A stretch of 64,000 bases of DNA, taken from NCBI GenBank assembly GCA_903813345.2, contig CAIIXF020000001.1:21886001-21950000 (forward strand), given 5' to 3'. The position numbers were made by a program, and so were the translations under genes. The notes under the pieces are model-generated. The model was not told the origin of the DNA. It was given only the letters and a program-made list of their open reading frames with translations, and searched no databases. This document shows positions 751 to 37,044 of this stretch, piece after piece (position 1 is the first letter of the stretch; every line of letters begins with the position of its first letter). Source of the DNA: Owenia fusiformis (taxonomy: Eukaryota).

Positions 751-3276
751 CTAAAAGAAAGTATAATCAAAGGAGCGATCCTTACAACTGGTCGACCTAT
801 ACCGAGCTTGCTGAACAGTTCTCCCAGAAGGCCCAACAAGCCGAATCTGAGTATTGGGATGAGCTGTTCAAGGAGCATGATACACACAGACCAGATAACA
901 TTTGGCAAACTATAAACAAATCTCAAAACAAAAGAAACAAAAAAATAGTCCAGCCTATAATATCTAAAGATGGCAATACCATCTATTCTACATACTAGGG
1001 ACATAGCTCAAGCAATGGTAGCTCAGTATGGAAAACAACAACAACTGGTCCAACAGTTTAGCACATGGTTTGCATTTGTAACCAACAAAGCTACTGAAAT
1101 CATAAATAAAGAAATGGATATCATTGCATCTCCGGATTATAACAACTCATGTGCTCCGGAAAATAAAGACATTGACCTCACTGAGGTAATCTCGGCCATT
1201 CAACAGATTCTACTAAAACGACCCCCAGCCCAAGGGAAAAGATTTTGAGTATTTTCATTAAAAAAGGCGGGAGTACACTTCACAAAGCTCTTTGGTTCTT
1301 ATCCCAAAAATGCTGGGAACAGGGGAGGCTACCATCAGAGTATAAAATAGACCCCAAGATTATGCTCAATAAACCAAACAAACCCAACTACAACTCAGAC
1401 CGAGCCTACCGCCCTATCACACTTGAAACCCTCATAGGGAAAATACTCCAAAGGATCATAAACCCCCGTCTCTCTTAGAAAAATGAAATAACCAATTCAT
1501 ATTCCATTTTCCAGGACGCCTTCAGAGAACATCACTCCTGCTCCCAAACAGTGCTCTGACTAATACAATCCATCCAACAAGCCTGGGGAAGAGGAGAAAC
1601 CATGATTGCCGTAGTCCTGGATTATGAAAGTTGTTTTGAACGAATTTGGCGAGAGGGACTCATATACAAACTGTTTAACAAAGGCATCAAAGGCAGGATG
1701 CTTGTGTATTTACATGAATACCTTAACAACCGACAATTCTCAATCACAACCAATGACTTTACCACACCACTAATGACATCAAAGGTGGGTATTCCTCAGG
1801 GGTCAATTCTCAGTCCATCCCTCTGTAACCTCTACACTGAAGACTCTATGACCTTTGTGAAATCCGCTACAGCAGGATTCGCAGATGATAATATCATGGG
1901 CACATGGTAAAGACATTGATTAGTTATCATCACAAATCAACGAAGACCTTAACCAAATAGCTGTTTCTTGGTGTGGAAAATGGAACATGGAAATTGCCCC
2001 TGAAAAAACTGAAGTTCTAATTTTCACCTCACCAAACAGACCCTCCCCGGTAGTTAACATCCACATCGGCAGAAAAAAGTTGGACATAGTGACACATAAG
2101 GAAATACTTGGATGCACTATCGACACTGAATTAACCTTTAACCAACATATAGACTTGAAAACAAAAGCGGCCTACAAGGCACTTAGAAGTATCTCAAACT
2201 TCACATCTAGCAAGGGAGGATGCAGCCAAGAAGTCTTTACAATGCTCTATAGAGCACTAGTAATGCCTCACTTTGAATCTGGCATCAGCGCTGTCGCATC
2301 AGTAACAGATAAAGCCATAACAGCATTCTCCCCTATACACAGATCAGCACTACTGAAAGGAAAGCCATTGGCTGCATACCATCTACCAGCACTGATACTT
2401 TAGAAATTTTAGCTGGAGTTCCCCCCCCTTGACATAATCCTAAGGGCACGCCAAGCTCAAGAAGCTGTAAGAATTCTTACCCATCACAGATCAGACCCAA
2501 TTACTGACAAATATGAACAATGGGCCCAGTCATCCACGCTAGAACGTAAACCCTCCTGCTTTAACATCCTAGCAGCAAGATTACGACTGTATAACTGCCC
2601 AACCTCTCAGGAGAGTTATTATAAACACATCTACCACAATGAAAACATGGAAACTTTTAATCTACCACCTGTCGAAGTCCATGTTGAGGACTTCAAGAAC
2701 TCTTAACAAACACAGAGTGACAATATTATAGCCACCATACTTTCCTCAAAACCAGATAAAGACACTATAGTATTCACAGATGGTTCATCACTGGGGAACC
2801 CAGGGCCAACAGGGGCAGCAGCAATCATCTACCAACAAGGTCTGTCTTCCTCCCCAATATGCATCAAATCACCAACCTCTAAAATTGGCAACAACTATAT
2901 TGGCGAAATTCATGCATTCATCCACCACAAGCCCCGATATTACACTACTATCAGATAGTCAACCGACAATAATATCAGCCTTCTTAACCACTAACTTAAA
3001 AGGAATTACAACTGATAAACTCGAAATTCGCAAAGCCTGTAAAACCCTTATACATAAACATAAGACCATCAAAGTCTACTGGGTACCTGGACACCAGGGC
3101 ACAGAAGGCAACGAACTTGCAGATAAGATGGCCAAGCAGGCAGCTGAAAATGCCAAACAGCTCACGGAGATCAACATCACAAAGGCTACAGCTTATGATA
3201 AGATTAAAAATGGCTGCACCCACAAATGGCAGTCCAGATTTAAGAACTCTAGTAAAGTGAGAACAATTACAGAAGC

Positions 3277-3874
3277 TGTAAAAAAACGGGTGACCAGGTA
3301 ACTGGGTAGCCGGGTGACCATGTACCTAACAATCCCAGCAGGGTTGGGAATTTGATTTTTTTCATTGAATGGCCTAAAACGTGCCACTGAAAAATCCAAG
3401 CAACCAACCATCCTTGTCCTCCTTTAACTCAATGGACAAGCCATCCAACCAATCAAGCAAACGACTAAATAACCAAGCAACAACTTAATCTACCAATAAG
3501 CCAACCGACCAGCAAACAAATCATCAACAATACCCTGTCAATCACTCAGGCAATAAAACAAGCAACCAACATCATAAGTCATACATCGTACGTCAATTGA
3601 CAGATAAAAACATTCAATTATTAAAATTTCAAGATACGTGCGTATATCTTCCAGATTTGTTTAATATCTAGTAGAAATCGCCATCATAGGAAACAATCAT
3701 CAACATCTTGTCAATCACTCACTTGTAGGCAATAAAGTATGTGGCAACTAACATGACTAACGTCATATTATATTAAATGATAAACGGCAGTAAATGTTTC
3801 AATATATGCGTGGGCAAATTCTGCAAGGAACGTTAGGTACCCGGTCACCCGGCTAGCTACCCGTTTTTTTTACA
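3277..3874. mobile_element. Non-autonomous TIR element (MITE) inside the LINE
   Basis: Ends TGTAAAAAAAACGGGT ... ACCCGTTTTTTTTACA, with inverted subterminal CCGGGTGACC / GGTCACCCGG. No clear TSD. Confidence 0.7.
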
Positions 3875-7225: not shown

Positions 7226-10200
7226 CTAGAAATCATCATCATTGGTATATTTTCCTTTCTTTCCTTTCTTTTTTCCTTTTTTAGTCTTAGGAGCCTCAGC
7301 AACTGGTGCTGGTTCATTGTCAAGTCTTAAAGCATGCCCAGTTTGCTTGAGGTGTTGGAATAGTTTACTTTTAGAGGGAAATGTACGTTTACATGTGTTA
7401 CAGTTTGCAGGTACTCCCTTCATCTCCTGCAAAATAGATTGGAAACACTGATCAATTTCACTGCAAGTCGTGACCTGTTTGTATACTGCAGTAGTAAACC
7501 GCAAGTTGTATTATAATAGCTCATTCTTTGTATCATGTTTGTAAATGAATGAGTGAATGGTATTTTTGCAAGAATGTGATGGTGTGATAACAAATAATTT
7601 GAAATATAGTTTTACATTGTAACAGATATACATAAACAATATCAGTAGATAGTAGAAACATACAATCGAAGAAACTTGGATAAATACTTGTACGTGATAT
7701 TGTATTTACAATTTTAACATTTGAATTTTGCATTACAGATTAAAAACCCATTTGGCTAAGTATTAGTAATAATTATGTTATTTGTTTTTATTTGTCTGTT
7801 ACTGGTTTATCGGTTGAAAGTCAGATGTTGATAAGGTACTTTCAAAAATATACTAAACAATGCAATTAGACAAACAGAGTGTCTTATGCATTTCTAGGGG
7901 TAAGGTATAGTAGAGTGGAGACCATTCTGATTATCAGCACATGTTTGTGAAGGATGTGACATGATTTAACATAACAGATAATAACAATTAAACAAACATA
8001 AGAGTCAGGAATTATACAACAACCTGAAGCAACTCACCTGATTTTGTGACTGCTTTTTATTTTTACTTTTTGGTATATCAGTTTTATCATTTGTGTTATC
8101 TTCTTTTGATGCTATATCTTCATCTTTTGTATTCTTTTGAGTAGTATCTGTTGTTTCAGATGCTTCAGTGTTTATTTCTGGAGATTCCACTTCAGTTCCT
8201 TTACTTTCCTACAATTGTTGAGTTTGATATTATTCAAAGCATAACGCATTAAATCAGATTATCTTATACAAGACATACAAAATGTCACCACTTGCCATTT
8301 GTTACAGATGCCGAACGATGACTGCAGTACACCATCAACAAAAAAGTTGGAGACTATAACAATATGTCACCACTTCTGCCGACAATTCTCTGACAAATGT
8401 TAGTTGAAAAATGCATCTTTTTATTCTAATGATCTGAGACATATTAATATGTTTAATCCATAAAACAAACTATTAGTCAATGCTGTACCAAGTGATATAC
8501 ATGTACAAGTTGTATGTAATACTTTAAGACTGTGTAAAATACAGGCACACGCACATACCTCTAGATTTTCATTAAGATCTCCATTAATAACAGCTTGTGT
8601 AACATCAGGAGTGACTCTATCATTATCTGCATCATTGCTATCTTTGGTGGTTGGTTTCACTTCAGAATGGCTCTCTTCTAGACTAACAGATTCAATACCG
8701 TTCACTACTTCTTCATCAGACTCCTCCTTCTACAATACAATATCTTCATCAATAACTTAACTATTTCAACTCATGCGGTTGCTTTATCTTACCACAACAC
8801 AATTTCACCTCCTTGTTTCAAATACAAAAAAATGTTTCTTTTGATTGAAAAAACACTTTACAGAGTTATGGCTTTTTTTACTAATTTGATTATAAGTTCA
8901 ATTAATTTATCTCAGAATTTCTATATAATGTGCAGTAAGCCTGTATATTCCTAAACCTCTCTTATCTGAACACCTCTCAATGTGAATACTTTTTTTCATT
9001 CCCATTTTTTTATCTGCCATACACACTGTCATAAAAACCTCAAAATGTGAACATTTTTTGCCAGTCCCAGTGGGGCTAAGATCAAATCCAACAAATCCCT
9101 ATTAGTGTTTAAAACACCCAGAGGGCATGTGTTGCAGTGAGACAGAAATGATTAATATCTCTAACGACATCTTGACATTCCTTCCAACTGCTTTATTGGT
9201 GTTTTGAAGGAGCTACTTGTCAAAAATCCCAAACTTCAGTTTACCTGTTGTGCAAACTTTGCCATTTGCTTTTGCTTCTTCTTTTGTTTCTTAGACTTTC
9301 TGAAACATAAAATAAAACAAATAAACACCAATCAAGAAAAATAATTGTTTATAGTTGAATGGCCTCACTCATGTATCTTGCAAATCACAAATTCAAAATG
9401 TGCAATTATGTTATTATTGATATCAATGACTGATATTTATAAATAAAAATACACAGATAATACAGAATGCATGGAGTTTAAATACTATACTATGAATCAA
9501 AGAATTCAGAATGTACTTACTTCGATTTAGATGGTGTCTGTTGAACTGTTGTCTCATCTTCACTGGAGCCTATAGCAAAGTCGACATTGTCTGTTGCATC
9601 CAGATCATCACCTAGTGCATCATCTATATCATCATCTTCATTAGCACCTAGCTGATTTTCCTCCTCTGCCATATGAGCTTTAAGGAATGCTATGTTTTCT
9701 TTATGTTTCTTAGATCGCTCATGGTTTGCAAACCTGGAGTAACAAGACAGGGTAAACAATATAGAAGCAAACAAGTTATTAACGTGCAAATCTCACTACA
9801 TGCCATTTGTTACAGACACCTTCCTTCATTGCGTCATCAGCAGGCATCTCAGATCATACACATTTCACCCCTTAACCTGAATGCATAATTTGAGTGGGGC
9901 AGTGATGGTTTGAACTTTGGCATCACTCGCTGAAGGAATCAACTTGTCTTTCCTCTTGAACTTTTTAGTGTTCTTTGGTAAAATAAAGACTTACTTTTTA
10001 ACAGCCTAATATTTTCAATGCATTGATAAGTACTCAATCGTTCATTTAATATCAAATGTAGAAGCATACAATGTGCTGAGAAAACTACAATTTTCTTAGA
10101 GATACTATAATGTGTTGAGAAAAACAACAATATTCCGAGAGAATCTGGAATATTGCAATACACTTACGCTTTGTCTGATTTGAATGCTTTATTACATGCC

Positions 10201-13200: not shown

Positions 13201-15645
13201 TGCAAATTTTGATAGATATGATTTCTAATATATTGTTCGAGTAGATTCGATAAAGAGAGAATTTGATAAAAGATGAGAATGTTTCTAAAAAAATTTTTTG
13301 CTATCATATATTCTTTTTGTTATTGAATCTAAGTAGATACTGTACTCCGGATAAATTTCGAAGCTATAAAATTTAGCGATTTTTCAAAATTGCAATTGAG
13401 TTGATGACATTTCATCCGGTAATTTTAGTCCGTTCAGAATCCGAATCATGTTTGTATTTCCCACGTTTAGGGCATTTATTTGAATATTTTTGAATAGCTT
13501 TTTCAACTTAAATTTGTAGGATATCATTGTCGTCAACAGTTCTTGCCTTTGTTGGCCTAATAAGCCAATTCAAAATGTTAGACATTTTAGGCCTTTTTTT
13601 GAATTATCGCCCAACAACACTGGACGAATGTTTTACACCGAACGAAAATTATCAAATGTCCCGGGTCATATCCCCCGGGATTTAAAACACAAATGTTCGC
13701 GACGATAAATGTTCGCGATTTTACTACATTCGCGAACAAGGCAAAATCAAATCGCACGCGAACAATACCTGGAGTACAATATAGACTTATACCAGATCTT
13801 TTGTGAAGCCAAGGTGAGACATTCTGCAGGTTTTGAAAAATAAAGTCAGGATTATTACAGGCTTTTCACAACCATAATCAATGAATGCCATGGTATATTT
13901 CTGCAACTTACCTCCATTAAGAATAGCTTCTCTGTGTTTGTCATACCAGGCTCTTTCTTGGGGGTCACTGAGTACATCATAGGCTTGCTGTATGACACGG
14001 AACACCTCGGTAGCCTCTTGAAGATTTGCTAGATTCTTATCTGAAACATGTAGAAATGGACAAATGGTATTTCTTCATTCAATTAACATCATCTGAGCAA
14101 ATAATATGCCTTCTTGAGGAAGTGAAAATTTAAATCGAACTGTATGTGGCCTCCATCGAACTTAGATGTAGTCTATTTGGGTCACTTCATCCTGAGGCTA
14201 CATGGACTTATTTCGACCATCAAAAATTCAAATTTCCAGATTGCCAGCTTAGATTAGACCTGAAATTACTCCTTGTTGCGTGTTAAAAAAGACAAGAACT
14301 TAACTTTGACACATGAGTGTTACCTGATGAATGGACCCTCACGTGCCTTCCAAATGGTAGTAAACGAACTCCAATGTAACTACATCAGCTTATCTTATCT
14401 TATCAACAATAAGTACAGTTATACAAGAAATGTAAACAAATCGCATTTTATTTAGCTCTCGTAAAATGAATGAACAAACATTCCATTTTCACATATGTTG
14501 GGTAATATAATTTATCCTATGCCAAGTAGAGTTTTAGGGAGATAAGATGGTAAAATATATCCCGTATCCTGATTTTGAGGTTTCCATATCCAGAACCTCC
14601 ATATCTCCCGCCATATCTCCCGCTTCGGTGCATATCTTCCCGCTTCCGGTGCATATCTTCCCGCTTCCGGTGCATATCTTCCCGCTTCCGGTAATGCAAT
14701 AAAATGACTTTGCATATGAATGATTTGTTTATTTTTACACCGTGTACTATTGAAATGGCCATATGCCCCTGAAAACTCTACTTGGTATAGGATAAAGCAG
14801 TTATGTACCATCGGTTTGGATATTGGGTTCATCCCTCGTGAGATATGCATATCTACCTGAGGGACCGTAGGGACCGAAGGACCCGCTGGATAAACCCCAT
14901 ATCCAAAACCTCCCAGTACATAACCCTTATGTATCAGAACTTTCGGAAATGACAAGCCAGTCAGAACATTTTTGGAAATTTTTTCAGTTCGTTTACATTT
15001 CTTGTATAACTGTACTTATTGTTGATCGGACGGAAAGATAAGCTGATGTAGTTACATTGAAGTTCGTTTACTACCATTTAGAAGGCACGTGAGGGTAACA
15101 CTTATACAGTATGTCGAAGTTAAGTTCTTGCCTTTTTAACACTGTAACAAAGAGTATAAGTCATTGTTAAAGCAGCCACATGATAAAGTAACTATATGAA
15201 AGTAAACCATGAGGCGAACTTCGACAGAAGAGGTGAGGACCTTAGATGGGGATGCTCCACTCTGATGAGTTGGACTATTGGAGTTTTGACGTACATCACC
15301 TTCTATATCAGATTTATAAATAAAGACCCTACGGCTACAGGTCATCTTTGCATCTGTACATTACAAGGACTCCTACATTTAGGAAAATACATCCACATCT
15401 TAGATACATAGCTAAATTATATTTGAGATAATGAATTTAAGTGTAATTTAGCGAGTTCCAGTGATGATAATAATCTGCTGAAGTGAATGAAATTCAGTGA
15501 TAAAAACACATTTTACCTTATTATCGCCCACCAATAAAAATCACAAACCTGGATGCCATTTTAAGGCTAACTTTCTGTACGATTTCTTTAGGTCATCGTC
15601 TGTAGCGTTCCTTTGTACACCCAGAACTTCATAATGACACTTCAT
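7226..15645 (-). CDS. DNAJC21: DnaJ homolog subfamily C member 21 (multi-exon)
   Basis: Exon 1 (15549-15645) [33 protein letters not shown] (J domain HPD). Further exons encode [52 protein letters not shown], zinc finger [25 protein letters not shown] and terminal zinc finger [23 protein letters not shown]. Stop at 7226-7228. GT-AG introns. Confidence 0.95.
8280..8375. repeat. Short interspersed repeat fragment; related copies at ~17866-17975, ~31604-31678 and partial ~9801
   Basis: Shared blocks (TGC)CATTTGTTACAGA and GAGACT(AT/TC)AACAATATG(TCACCA) recur in introns of three genes. Confidence 0.6.
11302..11794. mobile_element. TA-flanked MITE, family A copy 1 (DNAJC21 intron)
   Basis: TACTGTACTCCGGGTAA ... 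TTACCCGGAGTACAGTA. Internal sequence colinear with the copy at 13338-13781. Confidence 0.85.
13338..13781. mobile_element. TA-flanked MITE, family A copy 2 (DNAJC21 intron)
   Basis: TACTGTACTCCGGATAA ... CCTGGAGTACAATA. Highly similar to 11302-11794. Confidence 0.85.
14267..15156. mobile_element. MITE with ~170-bp imperfect TIRs and internal 21-bp tandem repeat
   Basis: 14267-14440 is reverse-complementary to ~14990-15156 (e.g. CCCTCACGTGCCTTC / GAAGGCACGTGAGGG). Internal TCCCGCTTCCGGTGCATATCT repeats at ~14600-14695. Confidence 0.8.
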
Positions 15646-16702: not shown

Positions 16703-19700
16703 TTATAGCCATTCTCCATATCTGAGTTTATTTGGTAAGTACACTTCAGTCAAATAATTTGGTGACAGAGACGTTAAACATTGTATTTCTCCTTTGTAGC
16801 CTGAATCTAGCATCAACTGTAACTGAAACAAAGCAAACAAAAAATCATAATGAAAATTGTATTCAATAATCAATACCACCAGAGATCACAGAAATTCAAA
16901 ATTTCAGGTTATAGTAATGTCAGAATTACAGCATAAGCATATTTTAAATATATGTAGACTGTTCCTTTGGTTATTTACCTTAGCCTAGTTTCACAATAAT
17001 TTTAGAATAAAATGTATAAGACATTCAGCGATGGATACACTACATGCTCTTAATCCCCTACTTTACAATACTCCAACATGGGGCCTTAAAGTGTTTAATA
17101 ACTTTAAATAAAAATAAAAAAGAATCCCAGTTCTCTTTTTACCTCTTTCTTCCACTGTAGTTGAGAGGAAAAGAATGGTCTACTTAGCAGTTCCTGTGCC
17201 TTTCTTATATCTAGAGTTGATAGACTAATCAAGCTTTCCTCAGGAATATGTAACCTGAAACATACAATACAAGGATAATTCAATGCAAGTAAGGCTGGCA
17301 CCAAGTGCTTTCATTCCTCCTTGCAACCTATTAGTAGGCAGGCTCGTTGACAGGGGGGGGGGGGTTGTTTTTAGAAAAATTCCAGAGGGGTTCAATTTTG
17401 CTCAAAATGGTGAAAAACCACATGATTTTGAAAGAACTTTTGGCCAGTGGGGGAAGGTGTTGCACCCCCAAAACCTGAATAGGTTTAAAATATATTAATG
17501 GGAGACAAGCTGCCAATAATCTGAATTGTTCATAAAAACTTGACATTTGACAGTTTGTATGATCATTGTTAATAATATTAAATTAAGTGCCATTAAGTGC
17601 TAATATGTAGTCATGCAATCAAAGTTGAGGATGATTAAAATAATCTGCAACAGTTTGTCAAAAATTAAATAGTTCATCAGATGCAATTATTCCTTGATTG
17701 ATGTGTTTTGATCTTGGATCATGAATATTACTGGAAGTGAAGACTAGACTCACTGTTGAATATCAGATGGTAGAACTCCAACCCAACGCATGGTAGGAAC
17801 TGTCAGACTTGGTGCTTCAAAGGACAATGACTAAAATAAATAATAAACAAGGCATTAATATATAAAATGTCTCCACCTGCCATTTGTTACAGACTTCAAC
17901 CACCAAACACCAGCTTCCTAACACCAACTGCCTAACACAAACCAAATGTTTGAGACTATAACAATATGTCACCATTTGTGTGGTCTTGGTTGTGACATAA
18001 AAAGATTGAGATAAGGCTAGAAATACAAATATTTCAAAAAAGGAAAATAACATAACTAGTTCAGAATACTTGAATAAGTAATGGAAAATAATTTACAAGC
18101 GAAAAATATTATACAGGGCCTTTAAAACCCATAAATAAGCCCATAATTAGGGAAAATCTAGATGTGTCATATGTGCTGTTGTCATTATTCAAACATTGTA
18201 TAATTTAGCTTTTCTTACCTTTGATCCAAACTTGTAATTGCACATGATTTCCATCCCTAAAAAAGGAACTTTTGATAAATTATTTAACAGTTTAAACAAA
18301 TCTGATCTTTCATTTTGGTTTGAAAACCAGTGAGGAAGCACAAAGGTAAATACTTGAAAAGAAAAGATGAAAGTGTAGAAAATATGTAATATTTTGAAGA
18401 TGTGTTGTAAATTATGAGTGAATTAGGGCTCACCATGAGGGTCAGCATCCACGAGGGCAAATGAAGGTAGATGGAATATTTCCCAGATTTTCCGCACCAT
18501 CAGTCTGGTGTTCATATCTGGGAAGCCTTTGCCCTGGAAAATAAAAATATTTTTCATATAATGGTATTCAATCAATGTCAGATGTTCTCCACTTGAAAAA
18601 TCAGAATTAGTTTCAGTTTCAAAAACATCTGAATAAATAATTTTCCATAAAATTTTGGTGTGCCAGTTTTTCTTCATGTCTAACTATGCCCCAACTTCAT
18701 ATATTTCGAATGCTGAATAAAGGCATGGGCCTTCTAGAGTATAAAGCCATGGTAAAGTTTTAGACAATATGTTACTTTGTGAAATAAATATACAATTTAT
18801 ATTGTACCGTTATTACAATACATGGGCCTAGTTTGTTACAAATATCTTCTTCCATAAGTTTCTGGAAAGTGGCATCCTTCTCTACAACCAGGACAAATCT
18901 TGCATCAGTGTACATGTCTTTCAGGCCCTGAACATGCATTGGAACCATCACTCCAACAGATGACAAGGAACAGTTGGTGGAGCTGCCATCCTCCTCTGTG
19001 AACCTCAGATTTCCAGCAATACAGCCTTTAGATGTCGCAAGCTGGAAATATAAGAGTTATATTGAATAAAAGGATGAAACTAAAACTGGGGTTGAAAAGG
19101 GACTTAAAAGAACTATAGTAGGAGTAACACATGTAATATCTCAATTCTCAAAGATAAACTGTTAACTAATATATACATCCAGTTAATTGCCTTTTTCACA
19201 CCATTAGCATACATGATTGTGGGCATATACATGTAGCCATGCATGTAAGAGGCAGGTCTCACCAAAACTTTACAAAAGAACATCAACTATTCTGATAGTT
19301 TTCTAAAACTGAAATAATCTAATAATGATAGTACCACTGTATCATATTCCCTATAATTCAAATCTGCCTCTTTTTATAACTTTTTAACAACTTTAGATCT
19401 TGGCTACTCCTAAGATGATCAATTGTTTACTTACCACATGTAGTTGCCAGCGTGGCACTTTCAGCATACAAGATATATTGTTAACTACTTCATCAACAAC
19501 TGACTGCCTCCCAAAAGCACCAACATTTTGGTAAAATATATCTCTGAAAAAAATGATACTGATCATAAAATAAAGCTGAATGTATTGTATAGGCCTAACA
19601 TTTTAAACAATGAACTTTATTTTCTTTGGAAAGAAGAACAAAATGAGATTTAATTTCGATTTCAATCTCAATAATCAACAATGGGGGAATTGATATTAGC

Positions 19701-20974: not shown

Positions 20975-22022
20975 TGATATTGGTCTAGTTGAAAGCCCAT
21001 GGTTTTATTCATTTGACCTGAAGGTGGGGGGGGGGGGGTGAATGACTTTTGTCTGTGTGTGGTGGGGGGGAGGATGGGCTCTGGATTACTTTCATCATCC
21101 AATACATCGATGAATTGGTCCTTTCCATCAAATCAAGGAAGAAGAAGAAGAATGTAGATTTGAATATTTGAAAATCTTAGATTATTTGAAAGTTTGAATT
21201 TTGGCTTAAAAATTTCGAAATTTTTCTAATTCGCGATTATTTCACTCTACCTGGTCGCTGATTCGGTCAAAATCACGGCCTCATCGTTTATCAGGGTAGT
21301 TGGGGTGGCGACAAGCTTATTAATTCGATCATCATCTTCAAGTTTTCTCCTTAATTCATCAACAAAACTCCACATGTGGTCTGTTGACATTTTTGTCGTC
21401 TGAAAATTCTACCAGATTACGCCGGAGATTGCGTTTTCTCAACTTTGGTTGCGCCAGCCGAACCATCATCCCATTTCGAGTCATTTTCAAGCCCCGGGGT
21501 TTCAAGCTGCTTTGAATTACTCTAAATTTAAATCTCAACAGTTTGACCAGGGTTACTCGGGGGATTGATCCGACCAAGCTAACCTTACGCAGTTCACAAT
21601 ATTGTGTTTTGTATGTTGCTCTTTTTCTCGCGCCATGAGCACAGCAGGCAACGAACAACAGAGCAAGATAATAGAAAACACATCTAACATAAGTCATAAA
21701 CCAGAGTAAACATGCAACTGTTTCATCAACAAAGATCATCTGTCAAAATCAACACGGTAAAGCCAAACAATGCCCCCGCTGATGTAGCTGATGATGATTG
21801 GTTGGATCAACCAAACATAGCCAATTACGTAACCCTAGTTGGAGGGTAATGTTTTCATTAGTATTTACCCCACTTCATTCCTAAGCCAATAACTGCTAAT
21901 CAATGGAACATACAAGACGCAATACATTAACAGAAAGAAAACTGTGAAAACTTACTAGGAATAAAAATATAAAATGCTTGCACTATGGAAGAAGAGAAAA
22001 GATAAGAACAAGAACTGACAAG

Positions 22023-25000
22023 ATGAGGACATCTAACATGATAAGGTAAAAACTATTCAAGTTCTATACTATTATGTTGTTTCAAGGGGTTCTGTTCATT
22101 ATTTCTTGAAGCCAAGAAGTTGTTTTACTGAAAAACAACACTGTCATATTTTAAATGAGGTTCAGTATTTAACGATCTAAGATGATTGTGTTCCCAGATA
22201 ACGACTGCCATCGACCTGATTGTGACAAGTTTTTTAAGGGGTGGGGGAGAACGACTTTGATATGCTTTTGAGGTGCACATTTTATTTTTCTATGAGGTAA
22301 TAGATATAAGCATCAACAGAAGAAATTGAAGAGTAGTCTATTTTGATCATTGGCAGGAAAGATCAAAGCAAAGGATCAAAGAATTTAATTAGATAAAGAA
22401 GCCATATCTCTGGTTGTTAATTGAAGTATCTGTCTCATCATGATAGCTAATTATATATTAATATAATATGATCGTAAATATAAGGAATTTTGGCTTCTTA
22501 TATTTGAAATACCTGTTTTTAATATTCAGTCATCATTGAGAAATTACAAAACGATTTGGAGGCATTTGGTACAAAAGCACAATTTTAGCACAATCACGTT
22601 CTTATAATTGTTGAAGTGCATTTGACAACACAGAATCCATGAGACTGATGGTTGTGTTTTGGTGTTTCAGTAGTGTGCTTTGGTTGGTGTTTATTACTGG
22701 AGTCTCAGGACATTCCATAGAGTCTGGAAAGAGGGGACAACATAAGAACCACCCAGAGAAACGTAAGTTTACAAATTTTATTAAGGTACAATGTAGTTAC
22801 AAACAATTACAAAAGTTGAAAAAATGAGGAAAAGTCACTGTAACATTAGATCAAAAAATGTAATTTTGAACTAGGTCTCTTACTATAAAAGGTAAATTTA
22901 TTTTGATGAAAATTACACTTTCTCACTACACACTGGGCTACCAAAAGTTCTTATGCTGTGAAAAATGCAAGATATCTCAACACATACATGTATACCCTAG
23001 GTTGGGCCCTAGGTATACCCAATACTGCAATAGGCTGTAACTTGTATTGAACGCCTCAAGGGCCTCATGGGTGAGTCAATAAGTAAAGTCAATGGCTATT
23101 TACACTTTATTAAGATGTTCTTGTTCATCAAGTATTTGAGTCAACCTAACTATTTTATTTTAATTATTACGTTATTTAAAAGTCTGATTGCTAATGAATG
23201 CAGCTGGTCCACGCGACAACATATTTATAGCGGTACTCATCACCCACTCGAAATGTCACATACCCCTGATCAAACACTCCATGGTCCTCAACGATGTTTA
23301 GCTCTGTAACAACACTAATTGCTATTGTATTTCAAAGTGTGTCTTTAATGGACAGTTTCACAGAAATTTCTAGTATTTAAACTGCTACTCGAGGACCTTT
23401 AATTATTTACATTATAGGTGACAAAACTTGCTTAAAATATTTCAAACAGACTTTCTTGTTTATGGGATTTAGAATTCAAACTGGGTTGATTCAAACTTAG
23501 ATGGGCCACCGTGGATATGGATGTCCTAATGCAAACCATATGGTTAAACTATTTGTGTTCTAAGTCACATCTCTATAACTGGAATGAAAGCTTGCTTACA
23601 TTAACGGATTATCTGATTAATAAGTTAATTCCATATTTGCAAATTGAAGAAATGTAACCATAGCAACTTTGGAAATGTTCCCATAATCCAAGCTGTAATT
23701 ATCCCGTTACCGGCTTAGCGCTTTATATTTCATGAGAAGTTTAACTTTATTCAACTCACTTTCCATTTCATATTGTTCCATACTGTTAATGTTGCTCTAT
23801 ATATGCAACAATTTTCCACAAAAGGCCAATTTCTATTAACCAAACCTGTAGTCTTAAACCAATGATGAGCAATTATCACAGTTGTGTTTCTCTTTATAAT
23901 AATAAACTATTGTAACATGCAATCATAAGGTTGTAATAGTTGTGCTAATTCTCAGTATCAACGCTTTCATCATTAGTTCAGAAACGTGAAAAATAATAAA
24001 TTGTCATGCAATGATTTTACACAAGGAGTGTGGTTTGGGGAATCCTGTAGGCTTGTAAAATGGATATATATTTTTTAATTTACCGCCATCAAAATTTTTA
24101 TTACACTGTACAACTTCAAGTGGTGCAACTGAAACTATAGATATATTATGATTTTAATGCATTTCCAGTAATTTATCATATTGTATGTAACAAAATCATA
24201 AATATTTTGCCATTAATTTCAGGTGATCGTGTAAACGAAGAGATCACGAATGAAATCAGCACCAATCCAGGGAGAAAGCACCATAACCGTGCAAATGGAG
24301 GGACGTCAAAGAAAGTGAAAATAACAAAGAAATCCAAAAAGGATTGCTGCAACGGTAACGGCATCTGTTACCTTGGAAACTTTTGCCATTGTGATCAGTG
24401 AGTACACATTTTTCAATTATATCTCAGATGAAGATATATATTTCGTTTCTTCATCCTAGATTATACTGTATCAAGCTAAAACTAGGTACAGATCGTATCG
24501 GCGAAATTGATTTCTAAAATAGATATCGTTCACACTGGAGAAAATGAGTTCCAGATGAAACCCCGCTGATCAACATTTCGATTTAATTTTGAATCATCGT
24601 ACTCAGTAGTAACTACATTGCAAATTAAGTTTTATTTGTAAAATTAGTTGTCTTCTATTTTTCTCATTATATCTCTTATTTTTAAGACAGAAGAATCATT
24701 CCGAATTTTCGCTATTCCGAATAATTATCTTGAATTCAAACAAAGTTATTCAGTTACTAATTGTAAAGTGTACAAATTGGTGAAATTAACTATTTTAAGA
24801 TAATGATTGAATATGATACATAGGGGTAGCAAAATTTTAGAAGTAATTTTGAAATATATATATTTCTCAAATATTCAAAGTTACTAGGAGTAGCCATATT
24901 TATTATCTTGAAATGATACACACTGGTGAGAAACAACGCATACACATTTCGTAGATTATTCATCAGTCCACTCATTTATTTCCAGTCGCTACTATGGGCG

Positions 25001-25824
25001 TTATTGCGAGTACTACCTAGAGCATGAGTTCTGCGGCCCTGAGATAGAACATGGTACCTGGCACCCAACAGGCTGCTTCATGTGCTTCTGTTTCAACGGG
25101 GAGATGGACTGCATGAGACAGAAACGATTCGATACATGCAGTAAGTACAATTAGAAAACAGTTGATTGGTATTTACTACTTGTTGATTTTTTCTTAATCT
25201 ATAAAAGTTTGAATTTTCGTGACAAGGATGCAGTCATTTTGTCCGGGTAGACTTCAAATGGGATGGATGATACTAATAATAGACAATTGTGCGAGGGAGT
25301 TTTCTTTGGTTCAATCTGTTTTACACACTGATAAAAATCTAGTTCTGATACCACCTTATAAATGTTTCAACTAATTATACTCAATTGTCCAATATATAAT
25401 TTCATAATAAAAAAGAAAGGAAATGGGGGCTCACTCTGAACTCGTACTGCAAGGTTGAGTCCAGTTAACTTACTTGTCTTGTTTTAAGAGCAGTTAACTT
25501 ATATGACTGTCTAAATAACTCTTAAGACACCATGATGCATCATCCAATACCTTTGTAAATAGAATTTCAATTTATTTTTAAGCTATGGAAGAACCTTTCC
25601 CCGTGTTTCCATGGGAGCAAAACTCAGTACAAGACACTGACACAGTGACACATGCCAACAAGAAGACACATCACCATATCAAGAAGACAAATCACCATAA
25701 CAAGAAGACACATCACCATAACAAAGAGACAACTGAATACAACACAGGGACACAACATAGGACACACCATGCGTTGTTTATCACACTCAGTCTCATGGTG
25801 ATACAATTGCTGTATATATTTTAA
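22023..25824 (+). CDS. EGF-CFC family protein (Cripto/Cryptic/one-eyed pinhead-like), 5 exons: 22023-22045, 22671-22762, 24223-24397, 24986-25140, 25583-25824
   Basis: Phase-consistent GT-AG splicing gives a signal peptide (SSVLWLVFITGVSG), truncated EGF CCNGNGICYLGNFCHCDHRYYGRYCE, CFC domain CGPEIEHGTWHPTGCFMCFCFNGEMDCMRQKRFDTC and a hydrophobic C-terminus ALFITLSLMVIQLLYIF* (GPI-signal-like). Alternative start ATG at 22639. Confidence 0.9.
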
Positions 25825-26180
25825 GTGCAATTTTAAATAATAGAAGATGCCATGAACATTAATGGAACTATTTTTAGTATCAATATAAAAATAAATGAGG
25901 GTCATATTGGTCCTGGAATATGCAATACCAGAATTGACTGACTAAATATTGGATATAGATGTACAATTTTAAAGACGAGGAGGATGGGGTATCGTTAAGA
26001 GGAATTTTAGTACTTGCACTTCATGACTCCACTGAAAGTAAACGTAGTCTGAAATGATAACAAATATGATATATCTATGAATAGACATTACTTTATTTTT
26101 ACAAGAATACTAATTGTCCTGTAAACCAGTTAGAATGACTGATTTACATTATATTGCTTTTAGACTACAAGATATTTTCA

Positions 26181-26366
26181 TACAGTAAAACCTGTAACCC
26201 CAAAAGCCTCTGGGACTGGTAAAAAGTGTTTGGATTGGCAGGTGTTCACATATCAAGGTTTTTGACACTGACGCCTATGGCTGATTGAATAAAAAATTGT
26301 ATAAAAAAGTGATCACATCGTGAGGTGATCAGATAAGAGTTGTTCTAATATACAGGTTTTACTGTA
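26181..26366. mobile_element. Short Tc1/mariner/pogo-type MITE
   Basis: TACAGTAAAACCTGTA ... TACAGGTTTTACTGTA termini, TA-flanked. Confidence 0.75.
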
Positions 26367-26665
26367 CATGAAAAGGACCAGTCATATTCAAGTTAACGTA
26401 CACAATGTTCTATCTCATATCATGTAAATAATGGAAGAATCAAATTCTCCTTGTATATACACTCAGACATTAAATGTATTTCTGTATTTTTATACAATAA
26501 ATTTCAGTTTAGCTGCCATAATTCTTTTATTACTTCTCAGTATCTACATATACATAGAGTGTATATTACACTATACAACTCTCAAATTCTCATACGCTTT
26601 CAGATAATGCTTAAAATGAATTGCTGCTTACATCAATTTTATAAAGACCAAGTATAACAAGTAAT

Positions 26666-30800: not shown

Positions 30801-33708
30801 GTCACATGTCAACAAGTATTATGTTTTATTTCAAATGAAGACACTCACCTTTAAAATAACAGGCATATATGAGAAATTGATTCCTCGCTCAGCTGCCATC
30901 TTTCTCAAACTGTCCCTAAGGTTAACAAGTGCTGTCATGTCAATTTCATCACAGTAGCCAAAGTGAGGAATGGCATTAGCAATAGTCATAGTTTTCACCA
31001 TAGCTTTACGCACTCCCTTTAGAGGTTCAGTTTTGTCTTTACCAAGGACTACTGGTGCTGGCCTCTTCAGTGGGGGTGGTGGTTTAGCTGCAGAGGGGGT
31101 AGGGGCGGTGGATGGAACAGCAGGTTGAGGTGGAGCACTAGGTTGTACGGCTGGAGTTTCTTGAATTTAAAATGAGAATATTGATCTCGTGGTAAATTAT
31201 CATTGATGCATCAAATAAATCATTTACATTTACAAAGTTATTATTAATAAATCATATGAATTCAATCATACTGTATGGTATTTAAATCCGGTTAACTTTA
31301 ATTCTTCTTTTAAACATTACTATTTTGCATGTATTAACATTACTACATAACATTTACCTTTAGGTGTATCTTCTCCTTGCATAAATCTGAGAATATCCTC
31401 CTTTAAGACACGTCCATCTTTCCCAGTACCAGACACCTCACTTAGTCTTATCTACAATTAAATACGTATTGGTATTGAAATCAAACAATTGTATGCAGTA
31501 CACATGTATTATTGTGAAACATTTATCAGTCACAAATTATGGGAGCACCTTAGATTTCATACAAAGCATTATCATGCAAAATGTCACAACCTTAAATTTG
31601 TTACATTTGTTACAGACGTCAAACTCCAACATCCGACAAAAAAGTTGGAGACTTCAACAATATGTGGTGGTGACATAATAAGGGTTGTTGGAGGATTTTA
31701 AATTAATATGCATCTTGCATGTACGCAAAACCATTTCAAATTGAAATCCATTGTGAATATGATAAACTGATCCCATATCCTCCCTGAATATCAGATACCA
31801 GTATATCTTACTTTATTTTCCATGGCCAATCTCCTGACAGCTGGTGTAGCGAGCACCTTGTGTCCTTTCACCATTTGCATAGAGTGATCAGTACTGGATA
31901 TGGTCATCTCACCCTCTTCTGGGGGGTCATAGGTAGGTGTGTCTGTACTGGATGCTGGAAAGAATTTTAGAAGTCAGTTAGAATTATTACAGAGTTAAGT
32001 ATTTGCACTTCTGTACCACCAGACACTTTATTAGTTTATAAATTCAAAATTTATCTCGATGTGATATTTCATTTGGCACATGTGTTCATTTTTCCACACC
32101 GTTGCCTGAAACTTTGTGTTGGTGTTTTGAGATTTTTGAAATTATTTTGCTTCATAAATCCTATGTGCTCTTACAATCTTCACTCACTTAAACTCATGGA
32201 GGAATTGTATTTCAACCATCTGTTATAAATGTGCATGAATATATTTTACTCAAGTAAAGTGTGAACTCTCTAGAAATATTGATGTAAAAACATGTTTTCC
32301 TCATGTATTTAAAATGCAACAGCAATGGAATTTCAAAAACCAAGTAACAACAAAAATCACAATATCCAAACAGCCCTTAATAGTAAATTATTGTAAATAA
32401 TATATTATTGTAATCCCTGATGTAATAATCCTTACATGGAGAGTCTTCATCTGTCTCTATGTCAACTAAAGGGTCCCCAACTAGAGCTAAATCATCTATT
32501 TCATAATAGAGCTTTTTAACCTTTCCATCATAGCGACTAGTGATGGTAACTGAAGCTTTGTCACTTTGGACCTCACATAAACTGTCAAACTGACTAACAG
32601 TGTCACCTTCTTTCACAAACCTGAAATGCAAATGTAGCAATTTGACTTAGTTACAGTACAGACTTAAAATGGCGCAACATCAATTAAATAATGTCCAGTA
32701 TATTTGACTTCAGAAAAGCTGATATTTTCAGAAAATAGGAAAATATGGCAATTGATTCAATTTGTAACAAAATACTTGAATAAGTTTATAGGGAACCAGT
32801 GTTTAGTTTCCAGTTTAATCTTTCAGGTAATTTGCATTTCCAAGTCAGTGTTAATGTTTTTTGTCAGATGGCAAAGGAACTTGTTTATTTAAATGATGGG
32901 CTTTCAACTAGATCTAATTGAAAGCCCATGAAAATACTCAGTTTTAAAAAGTGTTTTCAATACATCACTTAAATTGTGCATTGTGAAATTAATTTTATTA
33001 AAAATGTCCAAAATTTGTTGACATAAAGGTATATCCACTTACCATTCTTTAACATGGACTTCTCGTATCCCCTCACCAATATCAGAAAGTTTAAAAGGAA
33101 CAATTTTCCCCTGGCTCACTGAAAGAAAATATTCTACATAAATTTGATTGATAGGATAAAATCCAATAACAAATAAACACTGTACACAAACATTTAGTAT
33201 TTATATGTAAATGTATATAGCAAACTAAACGCAAATCTAAAATAATTGTGAAAAATGTAAAATCAATATCAATCCAGGTTTAAGAATGAATTAGAAATGA
33301 TAGAATTTTTATGACACATCATCTGGTAACATAATACTCCGCATAATACTTCTTAAATGGATAAATGATAATGATATATAAACACAAGTGCTTTAAGACC
33401 AAATAATACATTGAAAGATTAAATCTGCTATCATGGCTATGAGGACTTGAAATACAGAGATTATGCTTGCAATAAAGTCTACTGTTGGTGTATGTTACAT
33501 ATCACTATGAATTAAAAACAGTTTGGGTGATAAAGGATAAGAGCTACAGGTATTTCATCTTAAGAGAATAATCATTGCACATACCCAAAGATGCATGGAA
33601 TGCCCTAGAGTGTAGATGATGGGTCCTTTGTTTCACTTTGAGAGGGCTGGGAACCTTTTGGACATTCTTCCTTTCATTGAATTTGCCAACTTCTGTGACT
33701 GCGGAGGA
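27845..33708 (-). CDS. DBT: Dihydrolipoamide branched-chain transacylase E2, exons 2 to last (exon 1 lies upstream, see findings)
   Basis: Exons encode [40 protein letters not shown] (lipoyl Lys), [49 protein letters not shown] and [12 protein letters not shown] (catalytic His). Stop at 27845. Confidence 0.96.
29534..30465. repeat. 109-bp tandem array, 7 copies, each holding a DBT 3' splice site plus the first ~38 nt of the exon
   Basis: Units start near 29534, 29643, 29752, 30060, 30169, 30278, 30387. Near-identical ORFs in the track are offset by 109. Confidence 0.95.
29833..30029. mobile_element. 197-bp MITE inserted at TA in copy 3 of the array
   Basis: TA|CACAGCCAA ... TTGGGGGTG|TA, with inverted TCGACGCCGTTTCGG / CCGAAACGGCGTCGA. 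Neighbouring copies show the empty site CACCATATAAGTCAG. Copy 3 to copy 4 offset is 308 = 109 + 197 + 2. Confidence 0.9.
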
Positions 33709-34996: not shown

Positions 34997-37044
34997 TTAT
35001 CTGTAAATATACTGGTAGTCTGGCGTTGGTTCAGTATCATCCAATGGGTGGTAAACAGGTTGAGGAGATTGACGTTTTGTGATCGAAGAAACTCTTTTTG
35101 CAAGGTAGTTTTCATATGCTCCCTGATTTCCTGATACTGTAGCTGCTTGTACTGGATGGTTATTATCATATGGCAGTTGAGGTCCCGAAACCATGGCAAC
35201 TAGTTTTCGTTGGTTGTCATCAAATGTTAGTTGCGGAGGTCTTTGCATTTTAGGTATAGGTCTTCGAACTGGCAGTTTATGTCCTGTAGGGTTTGTTGGG
35301 GAACTCCAGACATCATCATCTAAATATAATTCATTTGCAGGAAGTTTTGCTGTTCTATTTCTTGAAGTAATGACATTGGAATTTCCACGGAATTTTACAT
35401 CAGGTATTATTTGCCTCCCAGATGTTGATTGTATAGCCTCTTCATTCATATGCTCAGTTGGCACATCTCCTTCATCAAGGTGCTCAGACTCTGGTACACA
35501 TACTCCATAGAGTTTATATCCTTGTAGACTGATTATTAAAACATTCTTAGCTGCGAAAAATATGTTTGTGTATGTGACAATTCTGTAGTGAATGATAGTG
35601 ACAAGTCGGACTATGAGAAAAGGAGCATCATGCATAAATGTGGCGATTAATATACTAGCAACAGTGGCATTCCAGCATTTATGCGTTGTTGTCTGACTCT
35701 GAGTACTTGTGATACTTGGTAATGCAAATGTGAACTGAAATAGACTAACACTATAGACAGCCAAAATAGCATAAACTACTCCATCTTGTCCTTGCTTCCA
35801 ATCACTCGTGAAGATATCCAACAGATCAATGATGTCCGCTGCTACGCCTACATATCCTATAAGTTGTTCTGAGAGTTGTTGGCGGGTCATTGCTTCATGG
35901 TGTGGTAATAACCACTTGCCCAGTAGGATCAACAGCAACATGGATTGTACAATGGCAATTTCAAATGTTTCATCTGATACGGGTATATCTATATCCTGAA
36001 ATAAAAGAAGAAATATTTTAAAATTTGTGAACATATATCATAGGGTGGCTTGATTCAATAATTTTGACATAACATCTTCATAAATCATATTTGCCAGAGA
36101 TTTTAAACATCGCAATAAGGGGTCAGAGATTTGGGTTTGGTTTCAGTTCTTGACTCACTCAGTTCTGTTTTGGTTCAGTTATTCTCCGTTCTCATTGCAC
36201 TATTATATTCTGATATGATAAAGAATATAGAACAAAATTAGCCTGTATGATCACTGATCACTGTATTTTGCAATTTTTATAATGTCAAGACCATCATCAG
36301 CATTTTTTCAATCTAGGTTATTTTAGTAAACATGCATTTACGAACAGTAACTTTCCTAAAATTGATATTGTTACAAAAAAAACGATTTTAACAAATTTTC
36401 TGAAACAAATGAACCATAGAGGCCAATAATGGTCTGACCCCTAATTACCATGTAAATTAACAATTACCTCATAAAAATAAGAAGATTTTGATGAATTGTT
36501 GGATGAGTCATAATTTCCAGCACTGAAAAGAGTCGAAAGCTCTTCCTGGTTCATGCTGAGGCTATGCATCTTAATCATCCATACACAAGGCACTGTCATT
36601 ATCAGGTAGAACAGTACTGTAGGGCATATGCTGAAAATATAAAAATGCATGATTAATATTTTCCATTTGAGGTCTGTAAGAGATTGAGACAAATGTTGGA
36701 ATGTGTTTGGTAAAAAGCTGACAATTGATAATATATGTACTAAAAGGGCAAAACTGGATCACACAATATTTTCAACATAAGGTCAACAAAGGTCAATTGG
36801 TATATCATTTAATAGATATACAAGTATTTACAAAAAAGACTTACCTTTTGCTGATCTCAACTCCTCGTCTTTTGAAAATGACATATGCTCCTTCAACGAA
36901 TATGCCTAGGGTTCCGATACAGAGAATCCATCCATAGACACCATAAAATACTGCTATTTTCCAAACTGCTACTAAGCCATGTATCATGAATAAGAACCTA
37001 CTAAGGCAGGCAAATGATGTACGAAAACACTCCGACAAAGCCAT
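34997..37044 (-). CDS. TMEM26: Transmembrane protein 26-like, 3 coding exons: 36845-37044, 36468-36630, 34997-35995 (~453 aa)
   Basis: SRFLFMIHGLVAVW, CPTVLFYL..VPCVW, LILLGKWLLP, TRQQLSEQLIGYVGVAADIIDL, HDAPFLIVRL and FFAAKNVLIISLQGYKL match TMEM26 family motifs. Exon lengths 200 + 163 + 999 are in frame. Confidence 0.88.

Follow-up and report, generated by a model that had tools for sequence, protein, structure and literature searches.

EGF-CFC proteins belong to an orthogroup that is bilaterian-wide in the available part of Heger et al. (PMC7535936). In the vertebrate working model, the EGF domain binds Nodal and the CFC domain binds ALK4, with T88 modelled at the Nodal interface (PMC11751877, in the sections available). 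The available sections of PMC11964751 describe T88A as failing to support Nodal signalling in vertebrate assays and, citing Shi 2007, state that in mammals the Thr itself is required and not its fucose. An earlier note on the DNA studied here spoke of a Nodal-critical, O-fucosylated Thr. In an ES-cell assay, overexpressed mouse T72A still gave 90.3% beating embryoid bodies, and the purified T72A protein was only about 30% less active (PMC2173524, as far as its text was available).

The closest described systems are those of Truchado-Garcia et al. (PMC9907556), who list an Owenia EGF-CFC mRNA among their sequences. They report that T88 is kept in some deuterostomes only, with Leu or Arg at this position in gastropods, Met or Ile in annelids, Val in brachiopods, and Ile in hemichordates and echinozoans, including sea urchins; G87, F94 and mostly H120/W123 are conserved. 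The EGF-CFC of the snail Crepidula, which has Leu at the site, did not rescue zebrafish oep, whereas its L56T mutant did, so that the oep rescue test proposed in the earlier note is already in print with the Crepidula gene. In the snail itself, overexpression and L56A gave no phenotype and deletion of the EGF domain radialised the embryos. Snail EGF-CFC was symmetric around the blastopore, left-right asymmetry was unaffected, and manipulating the gene did not mimic Nodal gain or loss. The authors concluded that the snail orthologue is Nodal-independent and offered a MAPK link as a hypothesis, not a result. Recomputing the rescue data, we obtained 4/39 oep after L56T vs 21/97 after wild type (Fisher p = 0.15), and p = 0.019 for 4/39 against the expected 25%. 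Ptychodera is a hemichordate and so belongs to a group with Ile at this site; its cripto expression is apical, and the study describing it brings up the possibility that Nodal signals independently of Cripto (PMC4571091, in its available part).

In a window of 64,000 nt of Owenia fusiformis DNA, we identified a Cripto-like (EGF-CFC) gene of five exons on the + strand, with its ATG at 22023, its TAA at 25822-25824 and GT..AG at all introns. Coding exon 1 (22023-22045) carries the start codon and the first 7 residues of a predicted signal peptide, and exon 2, from 22671 (or 22674) to 22762, the hydrophobic core of that peptide and the start of a basic N-domain. Exon 3 (24223-24397) encodes the Lys-rich N-domain and the first part of the EGF-like domain, exon 4 (24986-25140) the end of the EGF-like domain and the whole six-Cys CFC domain, and exon 5 (25583-25824) a His/Lys/Thr-rich stalk, a C-terminal hydrophobic tail that is a predicted GPI signal, and the stop. 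The boundaries of exons 3-5 are fixed by GT..AG sites and the reading frame. The spliced models match two database proteins letter for letter (P0002, 228 aa, and P0001, 227 aa); the same sequences are recorded for Owenia fusiformis as CAH1773662.1 (228 aa) and CAH1773661.1 (227 aa), labelled merely 'unnamed protein product' or 'uncharacterized'.

RNA-seq bears out the five-exon gene that the earlier note had placed at 22023-25824, with the start and stop right. All four introns are spliced out in 3/3 raw runs with 391-1264 reads per intron (intron 1: 602/564/391; intron 2: 791/715/1035; intron 3: 1264/1137/1088; intron 4: 1118/970/955). About 8,500-10,000 reads per run align to the gene, out of 11-13 million records; their depth tracks the exons and their strand (first mate on the - strand) is consistent with a + transcript. 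A fourth run, assembled as Logan contigs and taken for RNA by guess, gave unspliced pieces, with no splice joint among those listed. The 3' untranslated region (25825-26521) has an RNA depth of about 180-660, and transcripts end at 26513-26521. Many 5' ends lie at 22009 (134, 124 and 89 molecules), 14 bases ahead of the ATG, and fewer reach up to about 21894; the cluster at 22009 may be a start site or an allelic break.

Exon 2 has a tandem (NAGNAG) acceptor at 22668-22673. Position 22671 is the major acceptor (228 aa) and 22674 the minor one (227 aa), with 602/564/391 vs 30/30/28 reads, a ratio of about 20:1 for two of the runs and 14:1 for the other, and the two isoforms differ by one Ser in the predicted signal peptide. 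Two other 5' structures, one that splices into exon 2 at 22617 (246 aa) and one that initiates at ATG 22639 (231 aa), have an open frame; neither agrees with a database protein or with any joint among those listed, and both were set aside, as was an acceptor at 22634 that breaks the frame. A minor alternative 5' form is possible, given low RNA depth at 22628 and 16 weaker joints beyond those listed. The reads also carry allelic variation, including an in-frame 6-base insertion in exon 3 at 24266 (about a tenth of reads in two runs, none in the third) and many further differences over the whole gene. None of the 40 differences listed (265 more lie beyond that list) falls in 24345-24397, the stretch that contains the Ile codon described below.

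Of the 104 frames in the window that reach 75 aa, 48 were searched with Pfam to annotate the surroundings of the gene. On the - strand these gave a DnaJ domain (13790-14074), Spo11/TOP6A exons (18426-19056), a 2-oxoacid dehydrogenase E2 subunit (30834-32646) and Tmem26 (35000-36758); on the + strand, a retroelement reverse transcriptase and RNase H lie in separate frames at 1560-3298.

The protein is ordered as a hydrophobic N-terminus, a basic N-domain of low confidence, EGF-like and CFC domains, a stalk, and a hydrophobic C-terminus without a tail. Its assignment to the EGF-CFC family, as in the earlier note, is supported by the CFC score, the cysteine pattern and the closest relatives, which are EGF-CFC proteins. 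The CFC domain, with six cysteines (C113-C148 conserved), matched PF09443 with 32.2 bits for the exon and 27.4 for the whole protein (Pfam cut-off 23.2). Directly ahead of it lies a shortened EGF-like domain with adjacent first two cysteines (C80-C104 conserved). The HMM search that the note suggested succeeds for the CFC half; the EGF half alone passed no Pfam cut-off, its best match being EGF_Teneurin (E 0.57). The cysteine spacing is shared by 128 of 150 phmmer matches, query counted, and the named top matches are mollusc and vertebrate cryptic/TDGF-like or CFC-bearing proteins. A word-index protein search returned the Owenia record itself as sole match; the HMMER search yielded the relatives. 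By sequence, the closest PDB entry is 2J5H, the CFC domain of Cripto (E 1.2e-4), and a Foldseek search against PDB gave no match at E <= 0.001, with EGF and vWC/vWF domains among the weak rows. In the AlphaFold2 model (66-row alignment), EGF plus CFC is confident, with pLDDT of 90-93 by block over residues 81-140.

Hydropathy and the AlphaFold2 model point to a putative signal peptide in the N-terminal hydrophobic stretch (predicted helix 4-20) and to a putative GPI signal at the C-terminus, where the last 17 residues are hydrophobic, with a predicted helix at 210-227 and no cytoplasmic tail. The stalk between the CFC domain and the predicted membrane anchor has 12 His and 7 Lys in 42 residues, built by a 21-bp coding tandem repeat of 3.6 copies on the + strand (25657-25731, score 122), and could bind metal or glycosaminoglycans. 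The ALK4-binding His120 and Trp123 have their equivalents in H119 and W122 of the 228-residue form, encoded in exon 4 at 25050-25052 and 25059-25061 (+ strand), confirming the HGTW motif read by the note; His is found in 59/66 and Trp in 60/66 aligned rows. The equivalents of Gly87 and Phe94 are G85 and F92.

The EGF motif itself reads CCNGNGIC (24345-24368, + strand), with adjacent C1-C2, Gly at the G87 position, and GN replacing the usual NG. The position of human T88 is Ile, with codon ATC at 24363-24365, and no C-x4-S/T-C O-fucose site occurs in the scanned 231-aa model, which has exons 3-5 in common with the spliced forms; Ile in the Thr register and the missing O-fucose acceptor were thus correctly noted before. 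The GNG of the EGF loop (24351-24362) occurs in Owenia alone (1/128 pattern-bearing matches), and NGG in 122/128. Asn stands at the first loop place in 126/128 matches, where Owenia has Gly. Mouse Cripto changed at both the Asn and the Thr of the EGF loop has reportedly been made; a literature search for this double mutant turned up T72A alone. Because the Owenia loop is GNG, changing Ile to Thr alone might not confer Nodal competence, unlike the Leu-to-Thr change in the snail protein.

We tallied the T88 position across the 150 best phmmer matches among 50% cluster representatives. The full EGF-CFC cysteine pattern is present in 128, and the 22 left out are fragments, unrelated EGF-repeat proteins or proteins whose cysteine pattern is altered. 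Thr occupies the position in 100, Leu in 11, Ile in 10 (query included), Arg in 3, Val in 2 and Met in 2. Absence of the Thr, which the earlier note implied to be a surprise, is common in invertebrate orthologues, in this set (Thr absent from 27 of 127 homologues) as in PMC9907556, so that the first half of the note's second refuting observation holds. We looked up names for 20 matches out of the 150, namely the ten ranked highest and ten chosen because they seemed odd; five of the 20 records are nameless. Among the ten named spiralian proteins, Thr is absent from eight (two Nucella, Ruditapes, Solemya, Haliotis, Mytilus, Mactra and Lingula) and present in two, those of Octopus vulgaris and Dreissena polymorpha. 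The Octopus Thr proteins (P0011, P0166, P0167) come from three species, O. vulgaris and its cluster members O. bimaculoides and O. sinensis; in Dreissena (P0022, P0176) one copy has Thr and the second Lys. The five named vertebrates include Ascaphus and Gavialis with Thr, and Callorhinchus milii (P0088, Ile, with NSG), Spea bombifrons (P0142, Ile) and Hyperolius riggenbachi (P0079, Met) without it; these three proteins may be spare paralogues. Three unnamed proteins outside the vertebrate cluster (P0050, P0100, P0124) also carry Thr. Given the Thr of Octopus and Dreissena and the three Thr-less vertebrate proteins, the deuterostome-only account of PMC9907556 does not fit.

A quick tree, weak at 77 columns, has 9 changes of the Thr label, at least 5 of them forced by strongly supported branches. 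Ile and Thr codons are one transition apart (ATC in Owenia), and flips between the two residues would therefore be easy. In the same 77-column tree the Owenia end branch is the longest of 128 rows, at 1.97 changes per column. Together with the unique GNG loop, this branch is what a decaying gene that has lost its function might show; we regard decay as very improbable, however, since the frame is open, all twelve domain cysteines and the G, F, H and W are kept, and about 8,500-10,000 reads per run come from the gene.

We favour, with a probability of roughly 0.55, the reading that the Owenia protein is a predicted GPI-anchored EGF-CFC that likely binds an ALK4/5/7-type receptor through its CFC domain and likely is not a Nodal co-receptor. 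By analogy with vertebrate Cripto, it would be secreted and GPI-anchored at the cell surface, its CFC domain would contact a type I (ALK4/5/7-type) receptor and its EGF domain a ligand. If the snail orthologue is a guide, Nodal would reach its receptors without the Owenia EGF-CFC, which would act in gastrulation or axis formation by Nodal-independent signalling, possibly MAPK/ERK. In our analysis this reading is carried over from one snail study and from vertebrate mutants. It is consistent with a sequence in which the equivalents of G87, F94, H120 and W123 are kept and the Asn held in 126/128 matches is lost. We found no experiment on the Owenia protein in the literature consulted; the earlier note's term 'Nodal-independent' agrees with the conclusion of PMC9907556 for the snail orthologue. 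Several points weigh against the favoured reading: the snail rescue is cross-species and small (39 embryos) and used zebrafish Nodal; T72A keeps much activity, and the residue is more labile than PMC9907556 allows; and Owenia Nodal is expressed in the organiser, with a phenotype after SB431542.

The last point comes from the available part of bioRxiv 10.1101/2025.05.29.656861, which reports that Owenia Nodal is expressed in gastral plate and organiser and that larvae treated with SB431542 are smaller; the main text, as available, contains no mention of cripto, EGF-CFC or cryptic. In the older PMC5104510 (available sections), Owenia nodal was not recovered from RNA-seq. Our search of the genome with a TGF-beta profile gave 15 matches, some being two exons of one gene. 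The earlier note had suggested looking for nodal in the genome, and a Nodal-like locus (L004) is present: in PDB it matches the Nodal/BMP2 chimera 4N1D best (E 2.4e-34, against 1.1e-29 for the runner-up), with close resemblance along the Nodal-derived part. Two other loci, L009 (G000:C8:26740393) and L011 (C12:14683073), encode divergent ligands of the TGF-beta family that resemble each other and have a mature domain interrupted by an insertion. As for paralogues, which the note also raised, a genome search with the CFC profile gave one match, the EGF-CFC gene itself (1/43 candidates scored), and neither this profile nor an exon 4 query found a second EGF-CFC in the genome, both counts being lower bounds.

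The Nodal-like gene allows a different reading, in which the Owenia protein acts as a normal co-receptor suited to the Nodal of its own species and the threonine rule is confined to the ligand-receptor pairs of vertebrates. The ligand reads PNPID where human Nodal has PNPVG, the stretch contacted by the modelled T88. The G87 and F94 positions are kept, the T88 residue is labile (Thr in Octopus and one Dreissena copy; Ile or Met in Callorhinchus, Spea and Hyperolius), T72A is impaired only in part in one assay (PMC2173524, available text), and the snail test was done with zebrafish Nodal. However, snail EGF-CFC is symmetric and its manipulation is unlike Nodal gain or loss, and T88A reportedly does not function in vertebrate assays of Nodal signalling (PMC11964751, available sections), and we consider a matched co-receptor possible and rather unlikely. 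A predicted complex of the EGF-CFC domains with a pair of L004 Nodal-like domains, folded without alignments, scored 0.21 and 0.24 (mark 0.34), and we draw no evidence from it. It is rather unlikely that T88 flipped repeatedly while the Owenia GNG-I protein is still a co-receptor for its own Nodal, which would make the 'single residue' account incomplete; were it so, EGF-CFC-dependent Nodal signalling would either date back to the bilaterian ancestor or have arisen more than once, with Owenia and Octopus as a natural pair for testing.

The protein retains HxxW but has an EGF loop that is changed at three positions, a combination that would also suit a decoy or inhibitor, whose CFC domain occupies the type I receptor or whose EGF domain binds BMP-type ligands, damping TGF-beta family signalling. 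Human Cripto associates with BMP-4 and keeps it from binding ALK3 (PMC11751877, in its available part), and the genome has the 15 TGF-beta domain matches, some of them two exons of one gene. But wild-type snail EGF-CFC, when overexpressed, gave no phenotype in 84/84 snail embryos, and among 97 zebrafish 78.4% stayed wild-type (PMC9907556). A strong decoy would be expected to have more effect, and we judge this explanation improbable. The 'decoy' and the 'co-receptor for another TGF-beta ligand' proposed in the earlier note find no support here above the other readings.

The gene and its Thr-less state are already known (PMC9907556), and since this state is common in invertebrates and published, the finding is an ordinary one. 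The Owenia gene and its missing Thr add little, as the species is already in the paper that models this residue; the Owenia sequence stands in Fig. 1E of PMC9907556 provided that the alignment there covers every S1 entry. A literature search that fell short of most subscription journals turned up no publication of the Octopus and Dreissena Thr or of the Owenia GNG loop; it listed papers on other subjects for Octopus and, from 2023 on, a review of fucosyltransferases. In Owenia, Nodal is in the organiser and embryo experiments are possible, which would allow an own-ligand test of a Thr-less EGF-CFC in the Nodal pathway; for the reverse test, octopus and zebra mussel would supply proteins that carry Thr.

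The Owenia gene and the Owenia EGF-CFC mRNA of PMC9907556 share species and family, and annelids in that paper have Met or Ile at the T88 position; as the genome gave one CFC match, we infer that the two are very likely the same. The available text of PMC9907556 says nothing of the exon structure, nor of the tandem acceptor, the GNG loop or the His-rich repeat. Cfo-EGF_CFC of Crepidula fornicata is, like the Owenia gene, a single spiralian gene with a non-Thr residue (Leu), the G and F kept, and HxxW kept. Unlike Owenia, Crepidula keeps the canonical NGG, and its protein was assayed in snail and zebrafish embryos whereas that of Owenia is known from sequence. Vertebrate Cripto has C-xNGGT-C, an O-fucosylated Thr and a Nodal co-receptor role, while Owenia has C-NGNGI-C and no O-fucose site. 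With vertebrate Cripto, Cryptic and Oep, the Owenia protein shares a predicted signal peptide, a shortened EGF domain with adjacent C1-C2, a six-Cys CFC domain with HxxW, and a hydrophobic C-terminus.
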